Source: Vicinamibacterales bacterium
Lineage (GTDB): Bacteria; Acidobacteriota; Vicinamibacteria; Vicinamibacterales; UBA8438
Assembly (NCBI GenBank): GCA_965206705.1
Contig: CBDBKJ010000005.1
Location: forward strand, 642,979-706,978
Reading direction: 5' to 3'
Length of the DNA stretch: 64,000 bases
Below are positions 48,993 through 55,129 of the stretch, one piece after another. Numbering within the stretch: the first letter of the stretch is position 1; every line of letters starts with the position of its first letter. Both the position numbers and the translations under genes were made by a program. Below the pieces are notes generated by a model. The model worked only from the letters and a program-made list of their open reading frames with translations, was not told where the DNA came from and made no database searches.

Positions 48993-50156
48993 TCACGAGG
49001 CCGTCTTCGACCACGCTCCGGCCCACAACCGATCCAGGAAATCGGTCCAGGGCAGCACGCGGATGCCGTCCACGAGGCGGGGCGCCCGCTCCATGGAGAC
49101 GATCACGTAGTCGGCGCACAGGCCCTCCTCGCGCAAGGCCCTGATGCCTTTCATGTCCCGCGCCCCCACTTGCGCCTTCGCCTTGACCTCGACGGCCAGA
49201 CCCCCGAACACGAAGTCGACCTCGAACTGCGATTTCGACCGCCAGTACCGCGGCGTGTCGAGCCGGTGATGATCGCACCAGGCCTTGATTTCCTGGAAGA
49301 TGAAGCTCTCGAACGCGACGCCGTACTCGGACGTTCCCGGCGCGAGCCCCCGCCGTCCCTGGAGATGGCGGGCAAGCCCCACGTCGAACAGGTAGTACTT
49401 GGACGTGGAGATCGCCTTGCGCTTCCGCGTGTCGGTGAACGCCGGCACCTCGTGGGCGATCAGGGTGTCCTTCAGTATCTGGTAGTACTCCCGAACCGTC
49501 GACGCCGGCACCTGCGCGTCGTTGGCCAGGTTGGCGAAGTTGATCATGTCGCCGTGGGCCAGCGCCGCGACTTCGAGGAAGCGGCTGAACGCGCCGATGT
49601 TCCTGACTATGGCCTCGGCCGCGACCTCCTCCCGGAGATAGTCGCCGGCGTAGCCGGCGAGGTCCTCGGCCGGCGACTCGGAAAAGTAGATCGACGGCAG
49701 CAGGCCATGTTCGAGCGCGCGATCCAGATCGAACCCATCACCGAGCTCGATACGGAGGAACGGGTGCAGCACGCGGGACCGCGCCCGGCCCCCCAGCAGG
49801 TTCACGCCCTTGCGCCGTAGGCGCCGCGCGCTCGAGCCGGTCAGCAGGAACCGGATTCCGCGCTCCTCGATCAGCAGGTGCACCTCGTTGAGCAGCTCCG
49901 GCAGCCGCTGGATCTCGTCGATCACCACGATGGCGGGCCCGCCCCGGTCGGCCAGCGACTCGCGGATGAGCGCCGGATTCCGGGAGAGGCGCAGGAACAG
50001 CGTCTGGTCCAGCAGGTTCCAGACCGGACAGTCCGCGAACTGCTGGCGGATCAACGTCGACTTGCCGGTCTGCCGCGGACCGAAGAGGAAGCACGACTTC
50101 CGCTCCACCACGGCCCGCAGGTCCAGGCGGCGGGGGATGATCGGAGGCTTCTTCAT
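48993..50156 (-). CDS. AAA+ ATPase with DUF4143-type C-terminal domain (second copy)
   Basis: Walker A GPRQTGKST, Walker B VVIDEIQ, then LTGSSARRL. Same architecture as 32570..33892. Confidence 0.8.
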   Translation of the reverse strand: MKKPPIIPRRLDLRAVVERKSCFLFGPRQTGKSTLIRQQFADCPVWNLLDQTLFLRLSRNPALIRESLADRGGPAIVVIDEIQRLPELLNEVHLLIEERGIRFLLTGSSARRLRRKGVNLLGGRARSRVLHPFLRIELGDGFDLDRALEHGLLPSIYFSESPAEDLAGYAGDYLREEVAAEAIVRNIGAFSRFLEVAALAHGDMINFANLANDAQVPASTVREYYQILKDTLIAHEVPAFTDTRKRKAISTSKYYLFDVGLARHLQGRRGLAPGTSEYGVAFESFIFQEIKAWCDHHRLDTPRYWRSKSQFEVDFVFGGLAVEVKAKAQVGARDMKGIRALREEGLCADYVIVSMERAPRLVDGIRVLPWTDFLDRLWAGAWSKTAS

Positions 50157-50289
50157 GTCATGACATTCAGCAACAGTACCGCTGTTCATCATGACAACGA
50201 ACGACACATCCGGTCAATGGCTTCGCGTGCGCATGGTGGTGAAGGTGTTGACGTGGGGCGGGCCGTGCGGGTCTTCGGCGTACCGGAAT

Positions 50290-50847
50290 TCAGGACGAAA
50301 AGACGCTTTCCAAATCCAGGGTGAACCCGGGAAGCAGGGGCGAGCGCAACGTCTGTTCCCGGCGGAAGGTCTGGGTAACTACCAGCGCGCGGTCGTGCAG
50401 ACGGTGAATCCGCACCGTTTCGGCCGAAGGATCGACCATCCAGTACTCCGCCACGCCGTGTTTCGCGTAGAGAGCGCGCTTGTAACCCCGGTCCCGCTCC
50501 GCGGTGGCCGGTGAGAGGATCTCGATCACGAGGTCGGGGGCGCCCCGCACGTTTTCACCGCTGCTCAGCAGATATGCGCGGTCGGTGGAGACGAACAGCA
50601 GGTCCGGCTGCACGACGTCGGTGTCGGAGAGCACCACGTCGCACGGGGCGAAGAAGAGCGTCCCCAGCGAGTTCTCCCGAACGAATCGAGCCAGCCGCTC
50701 GCCCAACCGGACCTGAACCGTCTGGTGCTTCAGATTCGGCGCCGGGACCATGACCAGATCGCCATCGATCAACTCGTAGCGCTTGTCCGGCGGCGCCGTC
50801 CGGTAATCCTCATAGGTGAACTTGAAGACGGGCTGCGCGGTGGGCAC
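50290..50847 (-). CDS. Uma2-family (DUF820) restriction-endonuclease-like protein (GTG start inferred)
   Basis: YELIDGDLVMVPAPNLKHQ...QPDLLFVS...PDLVIEILSPATAERDRGYKRALYAKHGVAEYWMVDP, the canonical Uma2 PD-(D/E)xK pattern. Confidence 0.8.
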   Translation of the reverse strand: MPTAQPVFKFTYEDYRTAPPDKRYELIDGDLVMVPAPNLKHQTVQVRLGERLARFVRENSLGTLFFAPCDVVLSDTDVVQPDLLFVSTDRAYLLSSGENVRGAPDLVIEILSPATAERDRGYKRALYAKHGVAEYWMVDPSAETVRIHRLHDRALVVTQTFRREQTLRSPLLPGFTLDLESVFSS

Positions 50848-51119
50848 CTTCTTCGTCCCCCTGTCGTTTCGCCGCCTGCGGCTGCGACGATTATACGTTC
50901 TCCCGGCAGTCGCGGTGGGAGCGGCGTGCGGAGGCGCCGCCGCGTTCGTGCGATACTGGGCGCACGGCGGACGCCTGCGCGTCATCTCTTGGCGGCCCGC
51001 GCGTCGCGACCCGGAGACGCGCCGAAGGAGCCCTCCCCTCCGCCACGACCGCGCCGCCGCCGGGGGGGGCGGCTCGTGGCATTCGGGCGCGTGCGTCTGG
51101 AACGGCAGGATGGAGTGCA

Positions 51120-51695
51120 ATGGCGGTTGCAGTGCAGCGCTCACGCATAACGGCCGACGAGTTGTTCGAGCGGCAGGACGACGGGTACCGGTATGAGCTC
51201 GTCGAAGGATCACTCGTTCGCATGACGCCGTCGGGAGCGCGGCACGGGGTGGTGACGGCCTGCCTCGGTCAGGTGCTCAACGAGTACGTCCTCGCGCACG
51301 GCGCCGGTATCTGCTGCGGCGCCGAGACGGGCTTCATCCTGCGGCGCGCACCGGACGTCGTTCGTGCGCCCGACGCCTCGTTCGTCGCCGCGTCGCGCAT
51401 TCCGAAGACCGGCATCCCCGCCGCCTACTGGCCGTTCGCGCCGGATCTCGCCGTCGAAGTCGTCTCGCCCTCGGACCGCGCGTCCGACGTGCACGCGAAG
51501 GTCGACGACTACTTCGCGGCCGGAACCCGCCTGGTCTGGATCGTCGACCCCGCGGAGCGGGTCGTCCGCGTCCATCGGTCCTTGCGCGACGTTCAGGCGG
51601 TCGCCGAGGACGGCGACCTGACCGGCGGGAACGTGCTGCCGGGGTTCCGCTGCCCGGTACGGCGGCTGTTCCCCTGGGACCGTCCGCCGCGATGA
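51120..51695 (+). CDS. Uma2-family (DUF820) restriction-endonuclease-like protein
   Basis: YELVEGSLVRMTPSGARHG...APDASFV...PDLAVEVVSPSDRASDVHAKVDDYFAAGTRLVWIVDP. Confidence 0.85.
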   Translation: MAVAVQRSRITADELFERQDDGYRYELVEGSLVRMTPSGARHGVVTACLGQVLNEYVLAHGAGICCGAETGFILRRAPDVVRAPDASFVAASRIPKTGIPAAYWPFAPDLAVEVVSPSDRASDVHAKVDDYFAAGTRLVWIVDPAERVVRVHRSLRDVQAVAEDGDLTGGNVLPGFRCPVRRLFPWDRPPR

Positions 51696-52013
51696 TCTGT
51701 CTCCTCCCCCTCTCGATTCTCCGGAACCGTGAATTTCGTCGCGGACAGCTTGTTTCTCACCTGCCCGCTTCTGTCGCTGTGGCAGGTAGGCGCGCGCTAA
51801 GCCGACGCCATCGTACCGTCAAGTGCGATGAGTTGGGGGCGATCTGCTCGGTGATTGAGGTTGAGGGTGTGGGTTGTTGCGCCGTCCCTGGTGCCTGGAC
51901 GGCAGAACTCTGTCGTCGGACTGCCCCGGACAGCCGTCGTCGAAGTCGGGATGATGCAGGTCGTCGCAGCCCCGTTGCCGGGAAGCGTCGCCATAGAGTC
52001 GCCCGCGGTGGCC

Positions 52014-53852
52014 TCAGCCGCTCGTGCGGGCCATGGACTTGCTCCGCACGAATCGCGGCATGCGCGAGTCGTCGCCGTCGATCAGGGCCCTGATGTCATC
52101 GAGGTCTTCCTTGAACTTGTTTGCCGGTACTTCGGCATAGCGCCAGCAACTGAACGCCGAACCGCGTACGGCCTCTCGTGCGCGCGCCTCGAACTCGGCC
52201 GCCGCTGGCGTGTCGCCGGTCGCCCAGGAGGCTACTGCCATGCATTGCAGGTAGTTTGGATCCGATTCCATTTCGGATTCCGATTGATCGAGCTCGACGA
52301 CTCGAACGAACGGATCCCGGACGATCTTGTCGGTGGCCCCCCACGCCGCCATGCCGTAGTTGAACGCATCGCCTATGTCCATATCTTCGACACTGCGATC
52401 CTCATGGCGAAGCAACTTCGCCGCCTCGCTGCACGCTCCGGTCGCGATGAACCGCATCGCCAACGATCCTCGCGCGTTCGCACGACTCTCCTCCGGCACG
52501 GCCGCGTCCCCAACGATCTGCTTCAGGATGGACATGGAAACCGCGATTTCTTCCGGCCGTTCATCGAGTCTATTTGCAAGGGAAAGACGTTCACGAACGT
52601 CGATCGACATCACTGCCGGTGAAGCCGCAGCATCCTCGGACTTGTCGAGCCCGGTCAGTGATACGGCTTTCCAGATCAGCGGAGGCGGTACACTGTCGGT
52701 TTGCAGCACACGCAACGCATCTTCGCTCGCGCCGCTCGGATCATTGTTACGAGAACGAACCCGAGCCCGCTCCAGATATACTTCCGGTTCGTCGTATCCC
52801 AACTCGATCGCTCGATCGAACAACGATGCGTCTCGCGTTGCCCGGCGGTCGCCTTCCCGGAATCTTCCCAGTACGAACAGCACCTCCCCATCCTCGGAGT
52901 GCGCCCGTTCGATTCGCCGCAGCTGTTTCTCCAAGTCACTTGGTGATTCGTATGCCATTCTCCGGCGTTGCCACAGTCTGGCCGTCCGCGTGATGTAGTC
53001 CAGTGCTCCATCCCGGTCGTCCAGATTACGTCCGACGATCTCGTCAACGACGGCGCAGTACTCCTGCGCGAGCCGACTCTTTGGACGATCCTTGGTGAAT
53101 ACTACTTGGTTCAATAGCGAGAGGCTGTCGTACCGGTGCACGATCAGCGGATCGCGCGACAAGGCCAGTTGGCTCCGGAATGCCTGGATCTTGTCTTCGA
53201 GAATCCTGTACTCGTCGTCCAGGTCCGGAACATTGGACATGATGAAATGGAGATCGATGATCTTGCTGCGCGGTTCGCGGGTCTCCGCCCGGATGTCGTG
53301 CACCACCTTGGTCAGCCCGCGCAGATTCTGTTCGTTCGGAAAGAACAGGATTGCCACCGCGTCAGGCAATTGCCGTGTGCAGATGCCGCCGGTGTCCGTA
53401 TGACCGGTCCGTGAATCGATGAGCACGTAGTCGGGATTGATGACCTCCTGCCACTGAGCCTTGAGATCCTCGAAAAACAGATAGCCGTCGCGTTTGTCGT
53501 AGAGCTCGGCCCAGTCGATCTGACTGAAATGAGCGGCGTACGTGGCCTGCTGGGCGCCCGACGGCATGATCCACAGCTCGCCGCCGCGGTCGCCGATCTC
53601 GGGCAACCGGGCCATGAATTGGCGGGCGTCGGGAGCGCGATTGGAGTCCAGGTACTCGTGGACGAAATCGATGATTCCGGGGACCTCATCCCGGGGGCGG
53701 AGGATGTCGAACGTGTCGAGTCCGGGCGCCTCGAGATCGAAATCAACCGCCAACACGCGACGCCCTCGCTTGGCCAGTTCGACGGCGGCGTTGGCCAGCG
53801 CCATGCTCCGGCCCACCCCGCCCTTGAACGAGTAGAACGTCGTAATGTACAT
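52014..53852 (-). CDS. KGGVGR-variant ParA/MinD-like P-loop NTPase fused to ~330-aa helical-repeat (TPR-like) C-terminal domain
   Basis: Deviant Walker A FYSFKGGVGRSMALANAA, VLAVDFDLEAPGL and YVLIDSRTGHTD (Walker B-like). The C-terminal half is helical with no recognisable catalytic motif. Confidence 0.8.
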   Translation of the reverse strand: MYITTFYSFKGGVGRSMALANAAVELAKRGRRVLAVDFDLEAPGLDTFDILRPRDEVPGIIDFVHEYLDSNRAPDARQFMARLPEIGDRGGELWIMPSGAQQATYAAHFSQIDWAELYDKRDGYLFFEDLKAQWQEVINPDYVLIDSRTGHTDTGGICTRQLPDAVAILFFPNEQNLRGLTKVVHDIRAETREPRSKIIDLHFIMSNVPDLDDEYRILEDKIQAFRSQLALSRDPLIVHRYDSLSLLNQVVFTKDRPKSRLAQEYCAVVDEIVGRNLDDRDGALDYITRTARLWQRRRMAYESPSDLEKQLRRIERAHSEDGEVLFVLGRFREGDRRATRDASLFDRAIELGYDEPEVYLERARVRSRNNDPSGASEDALRVLQTDSVPPPLIWKAVSLTGLDKSEDAAASPAVMSIDVRERLSLANRLDERPEEIAVSMSILKQIVGDAAVPEESRANARGSLAMRFIATGACSEAAKLLRHEDRSVEDMDIGDAFNYGMAAWGATDKIVRDPFVRVVELDQSESEMESDPNYLQCMAVASWATGDTPAAAEFEARAREAVRGSAFSCWRYAEVPANKFKEDLDDIRALIDGDDSRMPRFVRSKSMARTSG

Positions 53853-53870
53853 GCTCCGAACCCCGCAGGG

Positions 53871-54422
53871 CTACGCGACGAGCCGGAAGCGTGCCTGCTG
53901 CTGTCGGTGCTTGTCAGACACTTCGATGACGCGGAAACGTCCGGCGTTTGCGTCCGAGCGCGGAAAGGCTTGGGGTTCCAACCCGAGGCGTGCCAGCATG
54001 CGCAGGTTGTTGCTTGCCGCCACGAGGCGGAGGTAGCGGTCGTTCGCGGCGCTCTGAATCAGAATCCCGTTCTCCCAGCGGTTCAGCGTCGCTTCGCCGA
54101 GACCGGTGACCTTCGAGAAGGCGGCGCGGGACATTCCGTGCATCCCTCGGATTCCGCGAATCTCGTTCGGCGACAGCACCCCGAGGTGGGCGCAGACCGC
54201 TTCGTGCTTGAGGGTCTCGGCTTCATCGTCGAGGAATTCGAGGCCGCATGACGGACAGACGTGAACCGGAAGCTCCACGGTCAGTTCGGCGGCGTCGGGG
54301 CCAAGCCCGTACGTGAACGTGTGGTTGCGCCGAGTCCTGCCGACAGGAGAGTCACAGTCGAAACACGTGAGCTCTTCCGGCGCGTCATCAGCGATAGGCG
54401 TGGTCATCGAATGGGGGGTCAT
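53871..54422 (-). CDS. MqsA-like antitoxin: N-terminal zinc ribbon + C-terminal XRE-type HTH
   Basis: CFDCDS...CPSCG four-Cys ribbon. HTH: IRGIRGMHGMSRAAFSKVTGLGEATLNRWENG. 18 nt upstream of the ATPase gene. Confidence 0.75.
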   Translation of the reverse strand: MTPHSMTTPIADDAPEELTCFDCDSPVGRTRRNHTFTYGLGPDAAELTVELPVHVCPSCGLEFLDDEAETLKHEAVCAHLGVLSPNEIRGIRGMHGMSRAAFSKVTGLGEATLNRWENGILIQSAANDRYLRLVAASNNLRMLARLGLEPQAFPRSDANAGRFRVIEVSDKHRQQQARFRLVA

Positions 54423-54434
54423 GGCTCTGCCTGG

Positions 54435-54780
54435 CTACTCGTGAGTCGAGTAGTGGAAGCTCCCGAATATCCGACCTGCATGCAGTTGCAGCTTCACGTA
54501 GAGCCGGGGAACCGCCGGTTCGAGTTCGAATCTTCATGACGTAACCGGGTTTGCCTCGGGGGTTGTCGAGCGTGACGACCTTGACGTCATGACCGTCCTC
54601 GAGTCTGGACGCGATCAGCTCCCAAGCAGCTGAGTTGGTGAACGGTAGGTCAACGGTCGAATTGCGCACTTCGTGCGGCCGCCATTCGGTCGGGCGCTCC
54701 GCACTGAACTTCGTGTCTCTGGACCGAGGCCGCCTTGCCAGCACGACAAGCTGGTGTCGCGTCGAATCGTCGATGCTCAC
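54435..54780 (-). pseudogene. putative toxin (MqsR-like by position and C-terminal motif), frameshift near 54504-54509 (G4 run)
   Basis: ORF 54388..54780 reads ...KPGYVMKIRTRTGGSP and then shifts. The adjacent frame gives LYVKLQLHAGRIFGSFHYSTHE*, ending 12 nt before the MqsA-like ATG. Compare the E. coli MqsR C-terminus ...VYLKITVIHDVLIVSFKEK (from memory). Length is 3n+1. Confidence 0.45.
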
Positions 54781-54824
54781 CAGGATGTCCGCAGTTGGTG
54801 GACGACCGTACAGTCACCGGTATC

Positions 54825-54877
54825 AATCATATGAGTTGTCGCAGGAAAACGCAAGCCGTTTGGCGTGTCATATGATT
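54825..54877. promoter_or_regulatory. twin palindromic operator candidates upstream of the toxin-antitoxin-ATPase operon
   Basis: AATCATATGA (54825..54834) and TCATATGATT (54868..54877). Each contains the self-complementary TCATATGA. Centres are 43 bp apart, 45-97 nt upstream of the start at 54780. Confidence 0.45.
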
Positions 54878-55129
54878 TGGATCGGCAAGGTCTGCGACCA
54901 AGCAGTGGAAAGAGCGGTCGGTCGGGAGGTGGGCCGGGCATCCACCGTGGCTGGCAGCGAGTACGGTGTTCCAGCGTGCTCGGACGCGGGGCGAGCAGTC
55001 GAGCCGGCCCTTTGGCGAACGTGACCGCGTCGTCCGGACGGTCCGACGGGTAGTCCTCGCGCCAAGCAGTCGCTTCGCCCGCCACGCATACGATGGGATG
55101 CGCGAATCCATACCGAGGCCCGTGCGGAA

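Follow-up and report, generated by a model that had tools for sequence, protein, structure and literature searches.

The window analysed here, a 64,000-nucleotide (nt) stretch of contig CBDBKJ010000005.1 from a Vicinamibacterales bacterium, contains three co-directional genes on the minus strand. Gene 1 (T) encodes a small toxin-like protein, gene 2 (A) a predicted MqsA-family antitoxin and gene 3 (C) a predicted ParA/MinD-fold ATPase with a helical tail. They lie in a patch of lower guanine-plus-cytosine (GC) content (52000-55000), with 58-65% GC compared with 67-74% in the flanks and a genome value of about 70%. A first-pass annotation, made from the sequence alone, had described three minus-strand genes in a low-GC patch with gaps of 12 nt and 18 nt, and its coordinates match to the base. 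It had read the locus as an MqsR/MqsA-like toxin-antitoxin (TA) pair extended by the ATPase. A simple promoter and terminator scan found no convincing terminator between the three genes. The boundaries of an island could not be defined at this locus: there is no tRNA, and flanking repeats occur at chance level only. The positions of all features are given in Table 1.

Table 1. Features of the three-gene locus in the window (aa, amino acids; L001 and L006, close relatives with intact T)
Feature	Positions	Strand	Remarks
Gene 1 (T), toxin-like small protein	54435..54780	-	pseudogene here; 114 aa after frame correction; GTG start at 54780
Frameshift site in gene 1	54529..54530	-	one extra T, AAGA[T]TCGAAC, by alignment with L001 and L006
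In-frame 3-nt deletion in gene 1	54460..54461	-	near-invariant Arg (R109) of GRSFHYS lost, by alignment with L001 and L006
Gene 2 (A), MqsA-family antitoxin	53871..54422	-	183 aa; 12 nt past gene 1 stop
Parts of gene 2			zinc ribbon ~aa 18-70; helix-turn-helix ~aa 84-140; C-terminal extension aa 141-183
Conserved C-terminal peptide of A, proposed ATPase docking peptide	53874..53942	-	GRFRVIEVSDKHRQQQARFRLVA; near-invariant F163, F179, L181
Gene 3 (C), whole	52014-53852	-	612 aa; 18 nt past gene 2; N-terminus MYITTFYSFKGGVGRS
Gene 3, N-terminal ParA/MinD-fold NTPase domain	53013..53852	-	aa 1-280; KGGVGRS (53805-53825), switch I DFD, Walker B VLIDSRTG
Gene 3, C-terminal alpha-solenoid tail, tetratricopeptide repeat-like	52014..53012	-	aa 281-612 and stop codon
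Proximal operator palindrome	54826..54834	-	CTCATATGATT; holds putative -10 TATGAT (54826-54831)
Putative -35 hexamer	54849..54854	-	TTGCGT; 17 nt upstream of -10; unflagged by simple consensus scan
Distal operator copy	54868..54875	.	core TCATATGA, minus-strand reading AATCATATGAC; 41 nt from proximal copy, the commonest spacing class

We searched for this arrangement from both ends. A T-based scan with one genome per species yielded 116 confirmed loci, of which 80 were examined: T, A and the ATPase gene are adjacent, in the same order and on one strand in 79. In the other direction, an ATPase-based scan of metagenomes from soil, peat, sediment and sponge returned 80 full-length relatives with 38-57% identity. 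T and A lie upstream of the ATPase in all 69 loci whose upstream DNA extends for at least 1.1 kb; in the other 11, the contig ends too early. The trio was also found with four distant T homologues (33-39% identity to P0001), on a 23-kb plasmid of Massilia forsythiae and on megaplasmids of Rhizobium phaseoli; overall, the arrangement recurs in more than 150 independent loci. The genes are tightly spaced, with a typical T-A gap of 12 nt (21 of the 80 species loci, as in the window), and A and the ATPase gene typically separated by 4-5 nt or overlapping by 1 nt. Clustering of all flanking open reading frames revealed no conserved fourth gene. Co-conservation in both search directions, together with the tight gaps, upholds the earlier proposal that the ATPase extends the TA-like pair into one unit, and it contradicts a separately transcribed ATPase that is not co-conserved with the pair. 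A chance adjacency of a TA pair and an unrelated ATPase is refuted by the same observation, made in about 150 loci from many phyla and habitats, and its probability is practically negligible. These results show that the trio is a widespread conserved operon, whose genes are almost always found together across many phyla.

The hosts include Binatia, Latescibacterota, Acidobacteriota, Alpha-, Beta- and Gammaproteobacteria, Spirochaetia and Entotheonella. Because the unit occurs in many host groups and its flanks differ from locus to locus, we consider it horizontally mobile. The closest 80 species-level matches (L010-L089) are mostly metagenome-assembled genomes of sponge symbionts (Binatia, Latescibacterota, Entotheonella, Poriferihabitans and a Spongia bin), while more distant copies of the trio come from soil, peat and sediment.

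Gene 2 had been described as a zinc-ribbon protein with an XRE-type helix-turn-helix (HTH), and both parts were found. The zinc ribbon contains two CxxC pairs, CFDC (C20, C23) and CPSC (C56, C59), with all four Cys residues invariant in 29 sequences, and is followed by the HTH; the window copy matches YgiT_finger with 20.3 bits (cut-off 20.2) and HTH_3 with 24.5 bits (cut-off 23). It scores just under the cut-off of the MqsA family model TIGR03830 (59.1 bits, cut-off 61.8) and reaches 18.9 bits for Pfam MqsA_antitoxin (PF15731, cut-off 30). All 29 A homologues tested match TIGR03830 (best E 3.7e-20), the distant homologues L173 and L177 show strong Pfam MqsA_antitoxin matches, and RefSeq labels the Massilia and Rhizobium copies as MqsA family antitoxins. 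By these matches, gene 2 is assigned to the MqsA family, in agreement with the first reading of it as an MqsA-like antitoxin.

Relative to E. coli MqsA, A carries a 45-aa C-terminal extension. It ends in a peptide with the consensus R-F-R-x-h-x-V-[TS]-[DE]-x-x-R-x-x-Q-x-x-F-x-L-R-x-A-A, in which F163, F179 and L181 are nearly invariant. This peptide is absent from E. coli MqsA and kept in all trio loci examined; Massilia and Rhizobium A show a reduced form, F-x-L-[RK]. Only two loci, L005 and L046, lack the ATPase. They belong to different sub-lineages, and in both A stops before the peptide. Two readings fit this joint loss: one deletion took both elements, or loss of the ATPase is tolerated only without the peptide. 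Since T with a tail-less A is viable in these loci without the ATPase, the latter is not needed for neutralization itself. Control by short peptides of a partner protein is the general rule for ParA/MinD-family ATPases, and the conservation pattern of the peptide is suggestive of an ATPase that acts on the antitoxin. In toxin-antitoxin-chaperone (TAC) systems, the chaperone-addiction extension is likewise located at the C-terminus of the antitoxin (PMC5105189).

For T, a first search gave 39 close homologues, and an exhaustive profile search extended the family to 486 representatives at 50% identity. An alignment of 69 members contains six invariant residues (W35, Y96, K98, S110, F111 and H112) and eleven near-invariant ones (R10, P32, P37, P43, F49, A54, W55, P76, G78, G108 and R109). 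Y96, R109 and H112 fall within the last two predicted strands. The first-pass annotation had pointed to a motif LYVKLQL...SFH and tentatively assigned T to the MqsR-like toxins. The motif is real: it represents the invariant core of the family and aligns with VYLKLTV...SFK of MqsR. MqsR membership was not borne out. Neither the frame-corrected window T nor the 69 members gave a credible match to Pfam, NCBIfam, PADLOC or PHROGs, the best library hits being those of single members at E 0.001-0.06, including one to PBECR3 at 0.057. At E <= 1, the same sequences gave no hit to PF15723 (MqsR); none of the 69 members matched a Pfam toxin family, and a profile search found no relative among the PDB sequences. 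Foldseek comparison of the T model with PDB and BFVD returned nothing at E <= 0.001; its matches were generic curved-sheet or NTF2-like folds with a template modelling (TM) score of ~0.3, and MqsR was not among the 50 PDB hits listed. Profile-profile comparison by hhalign gave a probability of 8.9% over 18 columns for the T family against an alignment of 26 MqsR proteins, and less than 1% against the single sequence of E. coli MqsR. By these comparisons, T is not a detectable member of MqsR/PF15723.

The weak MqsR alignment places LYIKLQLgxgxViGRSFH on VYLKLTVIDDVLI-VSFK and covers the last two strands only. With the same low statistical weight, it pairs Y96, K98 and S110-F111-H112 of T with the invariant Y81, K83 and S94-F95-K96 of MqsR, of which we take Y81 and K96 to be the catalytic residues. 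The AlphaFold2 model of T consists of a helix, a second helix and four antiparallel strands, a topology that is presumably compatible with the MqsR class; the predicted local distance difference test (pLDDT) score is 86 in one of five models and 66-71 in the others. Substitution of the Tyr abolishes toxicity of an MqsR homologue (PMC10440598), and MqsA-type antitoxins are known partners of both MqsR and DUF4258, two BECR-fold toxin families (PMC11980606). Judged by its alignment, T founds an unnamed family of small proteins with the core W, Y-x-K and S-F-H that is covered by no profile library. It may be distantly related to MqsR, which we treat as a lead and not as a finding. The first position in a pair with an MqsA antitoxin, the survival of the T-A pair on its own in L005 and L046, the invariant Y/H residues with the near-invariant R, and their placement in the weak MqsR alignment are suggestive of a toxin.

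The copy of T in the window is damaged. Without correction, its open reading frame (54388-54780, 130 aa) extends into gene 2. With the frame shifted by +1 near 54529/54530, gene 1 encodes 114 aa and ends in ...GYVMKIELEPAVPRLYVKLQLHAGRIFGSFHYSTHE* with the stop at 54435-54437; the frame-corrected C-terminus is also given as ...LYVKLQLHAGRIFGSFHYSTHE. The first-pass annotation, which described a protein of ~115 aa with one frameshift, was right about the frameshift and the C-terminus and overlooked two further changes: the 3-nt deletion that removes R109 of GRSFHYS, a residue at least 90% conserved in the 69-member alignment, and an ATG to ATC change at the upstream start codon used by the intact close relative L001. 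Window T is 92% identical to that of L001. The doubly damaged allele is present, base for base, on scaffolds of two other samples (L178 1-631 and L179 1-516, compared with window 54380-54900). One of them, L178, joins it to a different, L006-like promoter/operator region, suggesting recombination at the boundary between operator and start codon. The lesions are therefore real, and an assembly error was rejected as their cause.

A and C are full length in the window. Between the window and L001, the ratio of nonsynonymous to synonymous substitution rates (dN/dS) is 0.25 for T, 0.27 for A and 0.26 for C; since the three values are similar (~0.25), T was inactivated recently. Window T is thus a recently inactivated pseudogene next to intact A and C, and we count this knock-out of T alone as suggestive of a toxin. 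Across loci, T is intact in 143 of 150 and disrupted in only 7, so that a preferential decay of T was rejected.

The latter numbers also suit a different explanation, in which T is not a toxin. The trio would then serve a regulatory or housekeeping function without growth arrest, in which the ParA-like ATPase positions or remodels a complex, A acts as an MqsA-like repressor and T as a small co-factor. The missing statistical link of T to any toxin, its intactness in 143 of 150 loci without a general excess of decay and the similar purifying selection on all three genes agree with such a function, but the patchy spread over many phyla, the atypical GC content and the occurrence on plasmids and next to conjugation genes are habits of selfish or conflict modules. 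Moreover, MqsA-family proteins are almost always antitoxins. We consider a non-toxic trio unlikely.

Gene 3 matches NCBIfam NF047398 (AAA_KGGVGR) with 171.9 bits (cut-off 90, aa 2-187), and a Foldseek search with its N-terminal 280 residues retrieved Soj, MinD, McdA and ParA with a probability of 1.0 and a TM score of ~0.65. The motif KGG[VTS]GR[ST] was found in 159 of 161 homologous locus copies searched. In these 159 copies, as in the window, the second Lys of the partition-ATPase motif KGGxxK[ST] is Arg. This deviant Walker A motif had already been noted in the first-pass annotation; the residue replaced by Arg is the canonical P-loop Lys of GK[ST] and not, as stated there, the signature Lys of ParA/MinD proteins, which is retained (K of KGG). 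D37 and D39 of switch I (D-F-D) and D146 of Walker B are invariant. An invariant Cys158 (codon ~53379-53381) lies in the likewise invariant GGICTRQLPD just past Walker B, in the switch II region; the model is poorly confident around it (pLDDT <50 for residues 150-160).

The earlier description of a 612-aa protein with a KGGVGR motif and a helical tail of ~330 aa agrees with the NF047398 match and with the predicted model, in which residues 280-610 form an all-helical solenoid with pLDDT >90. Matches to tetratricopeptide repeats (TPR) are faint in the window copy; in the homologue L173, TPR_12, TPR_19 and TPR_2 score above cut-off. A tail profile gave weak PDB matches to the TPR proteins LapB, CTPR390 and LpoP. 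The tail varies between species. In 7 of 80 (L045, L051, L053, L062, L078, L087 and L088), the ATPase is tail-less and ends just past the core (274-307 aa, five of them 281-284), and the peptide of A is retained in all four such loci checked (L045, L051, L078 and L087). Five species have ATPases of ~410-433 aa, and L012 encodes one of 949 aa with extra TPRs. On profile and model evidence, gene 3 is a KGGVGR-motif ATPase of the ParA/MinD fold with a TPR-like tail. The family is large, with more than 7000 matches at E <= 1e-5; to our knowledge, no experimental function is known for any KGGVGR ATPase. No homologue of the ATPase was found in 50,697 phage records. Gene 3 also matches the PADLOC model PDC-M28B (113.7 bits, aa 4-216, profile positions 131-347 of 438). 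The second component of PDC-M28, M28A, is absent, and neither T nor A has a PADLOC match.

In conflict systems that depend on nucleoside triphosphates, inactive MinD/ParA-like domains have been assigned to the effectors (PMC7159879). By this precedent, the ATPase itself could be the effector, a catalytically altered MinD/ParA mimic that poisons division or chromosome segregation and is regulated by T and A. The fixed Arg-for-Lys change and the lack of recognizable toxin homology in T would fit. We nevertheless regard this as quite improbable: two lineages (L005 and L046) have kept the T-A pair but no ATPase, gene order and spacing are those of toxin-first MqsA modules, T shows no DNA-binding or sensor features, and the gene knocked out in the window is T and not the ATPase.

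The palindrome ATCATATGAT is found upstream of T in nearly all loci and is present in two copies in the window. In 148 upstream regions, 184 copies of the core TCAWATGA were counted (6.5 per kb), compared with 0.022 per kb elsewhere in the same loci, an enrichment of ~300-fold; in the entire 64-kb window, the core is restricted to two sites, 54827-54834 and 54868-54875. The commonest extended site across phyla is ATCATATGAT(T/A/C). Sites cluster at about -110 to -90 and -60 to -40 relative to the start codon, with centre-to-centre spacings of 40-42, 51-53 or 71-74 nt, corresponding to about 4, 5 or 7 helical turns. A TTGnnn hexamer (TTGAAA, TTGACA or TTGACT) precedes TATGAT by 16-19 nt in 63 of 126 promoters, and by 17 nt in 45 of them. 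The exact ATCATATGAT motif is not conserved in the more distant Massilia and Rhizobium copies. With the gene in the toxin position first, a short intergenic gap and palindromes in the promoter, the operon shows the layout of the MqsRA type. Judged by these motifs, the upstream region has the architecture of an autorepressed sigma-70-type promoter, to whose palindromes A would bind.

Repeated palindromes, a DNA-binding protein with a terminal peptide and an ATPase of the ParA/Soj fold could also make up a stability cassette of mobile elements, with the ATPase as partition motor, A as adaptor binding the palindromes as its centromere and T as post-segregational killer. The delta and omega proteins of pSM19035 provide an example in which a ParA-like ATPase and a repressor are linked to a TA pair, and some copies of the trio are found on plasmids and beside genes of type IV secretion systems (T4SS). 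Most copies, however, reside on multi-megabase chromosomes, and on the 23-kb Massilia plasmid a canonical ParA and a partition protein are encoded separately. In 159 of 161 copies, Arg stands in place of the catalytic P-loop Lys, the operator is present only twice, and a TPR tail would be out of place in a partition motor. A stability cassette is very unlikely.

The neighborhood of the trio was inspected in the window and in other loci. In the window, a nearby 404-aa ATPase gene (AAA_14 and DUF4143; 48993-50207, minus strand) matches the PADLOC single-gene defence candidate PDC-S01 with 177 bits and is also kept in the syntenic loci L001 and L006. Between this gene and the trio are two divergent genes for Uma2-family (PD-(D/E)XK) endonucleases (50290-51213, minus strand, and 51120-51695, plus strand); because their listed reading frames overlap at the 5' ends, the minus-strand gene probably starts further in. 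In L003 (9492-10160), an HEPN_AbiU2 gene and a DDE transposase gene directly follow the trio. In L175/L176 (L175 8165-10339), the trio has T4SS genes (VirD4- and VirB11-like) on one side and a Prok-E2/ThiF/TCAD9 conflict cluster on the other. On pRphaN831c of Rhizobium phaseoli (L171 5908-9836), the genes immediately downstream of and convergent with the trio encode an SbcC-like AAA ATPase, an SbcD-like exonuclease and a very large DUF3320 protein, which may represent another defence cluster.

Based on these observations, we propose that the trio is a tripartite TA-like conflict module, with T as effector, A as neutralizer and autorepressor, the KGGVGR ATPase as a nucleotide-gated component acting on the C-terminal peptide of A, and the TPR tail as an accessory sensor; we assign this reading a probability of roughly 0.5. 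A sigma-70-type promoter with its -10 element inside ATCATATGAT would drive the operon, and the HTH of A would bind the palindromes and repress it. T, an alpha/beta protein of ~117 aa, would be the toxic effector, probably an RNase that works like toxins of the MqsR/RelE type, and by family precedent the zinc-ribbon domain of A may neutralize it. Because the P-loop Lys is replaced by Arg while the signature Lys and the Asp residues of switch I and Walker B are kept, we infer that gene 3 is a nucleotide-dependent dimerizing switch with slow hydrolysis or none. Its core would dock the C-terminal peptide of A and thereby make the function or stability of the antitoxin ATPase-dependent, by analogy to the SecB-like chaperone that protects the TAC antitoxin. 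On a trigger, perceived via the TPR tail or the nucleotide state, A would then be released and T set free.

Several observations weigh against this module. T shows no significant match to any toxin family (hhalign 8.9%; Foldseek none at E <= 0.001), and only one of its five models is confident (pLDDT 86 versus 66-71). The joint loss of antitoxin tail and ATPase rests on two loci, each of which may represent a single deletion starting inside gene 2. The Lys-to-Arg change in the P-loop may abolish nucleotide-dependent behavior altogether, since related domains have been called inactive (PMC7159879). T and A are without a PADLOC model, the ATPase matches only part of the candidate PDC-M28B, and the defence-island context is anecdotal.

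Within the proposed module, a more far-reaching version is that the trio represents a new and widespread tripartite class of TA or abortive-infection systems, in which a new RNase-type toxin family (at most a remote MqsR offshoot) is combined with an MqsA-type antitoxin whose C-terminal peptide is gripped by a nucleotide-gated, Arg-P-loop ParA-like ATPase, with the TPR tail sensing the invader. We put this forward tentatively and lean against it at present.

No description of the trio, as an MqsA protein with a ParA-like ATPase or as a tripartite TA system, was found in the literature searched, nor did this literature contain a paper naming the KGGVGR motif in this context, the sole full-text match being unrelated. 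The nearest precedents are the inactive MinD/ParA-like effector domains of other conflict systems (PMC7159879) and the sensory additions that zinc-binding HTH antitoxins can bear at their C-terminus (PMC10440598). The trio apparently is an undescribed tripartite TA-like module that combines an unnamed toxin-like family with a third component of a new kind. Its status as a unit is strongly supported, and the evidence for the mechanism is indirect. With one clade of KGGVGR ATPases locked to a recognizable TA chassis, the trio offers a testable handle on Arg-P-loop ParA proteins. If true, an ATPase gripping a peptide would be the first role assigned to KGGVGR ATPases and would arm a TA module in a new way; if it gates the antitoxin, it would add a new third-component logic beside the SecB-like chaperone of TAC systems, with bearing on how TA modules are triggered. 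The conserved operator should ease genetic dissection, and experiments are feasible now since the module is present in cultured Rhizobium and Massilia strains.

Comparison with known systems shows partial likeness to several of them. MqsR/MqsA (E. coli ygiUT) shares the toxin-first order, the short gap and palindromes in the promoter, and the Y-x-K...S-F-H residues of T align weakly with Y81-x-K83...S94-F95-K96 of MqsR. T is, however, ~20 aa longer than MqsR and has its own conserved N-terminal W-x-P region, the ATCATATGAT operator differs from the E. coli mqsRA palindrome, the antitoxin carries the additional 45-aa C-terminal extension, and the third gene is obligatory. A third gene directly downstream of the antitoxin and a C-terminal extension of the antitoxin are also found in TAC systems (HigB-HigA-SecB-like, with MqsRA- and HicAB-linked variants predicted). 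The two natural loci that lack the third gene have also lost the extension, which would be expected if it creates dependence on the third component. In contrast to TAC, the third gene of the trio encodes a ParA/MinD-fold ATPase with a TPR tail and not a SecB-like chaperone, and the dependence in the trio is only correlative.

In the MqsR(D2):PanA systems (NetFlax), the antitoxins combine a zinc-binding domain (ZBD) and an HTH with Panacea, so that an MqsA-type ZBD-HTH antitoxin likewise bears an extra C-terminal element, which is thought to be sensory rather than neutralizing (PMC10440598). The trio has a short peptide and a separate ATPase gene in place of the fused Panacea domain. The ATPase domain belongs to the same Arg-P-loop family as the NF047398 ATPases, the inactive MinD/ParA-like domains (PMC7159879) and PDC-M28B, which are often joined to repeat arrays; those are described as effector domains fused to or linked with vWA-MoxR or AP-ATPase systems, whereas a link to an MqsA-type pair is undescribed. 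Finally, ParA/MinD proteins with peptide-bearing partners (ParA-ParB/ParG, MinD-MinE and delta-omega of pSM19035) resemble the trio in their fold, in the signature Lys, switch I and Walker B motifs, and in having a small DNA-binding partner that bears a conserved terminal peptide. The trio differs from these partition systems in the Arg in place of the P-loop Lys, the TPR tail, its scattered chromosomal locations and the presence of a separate canonical ParA on the Massilia plasmid.

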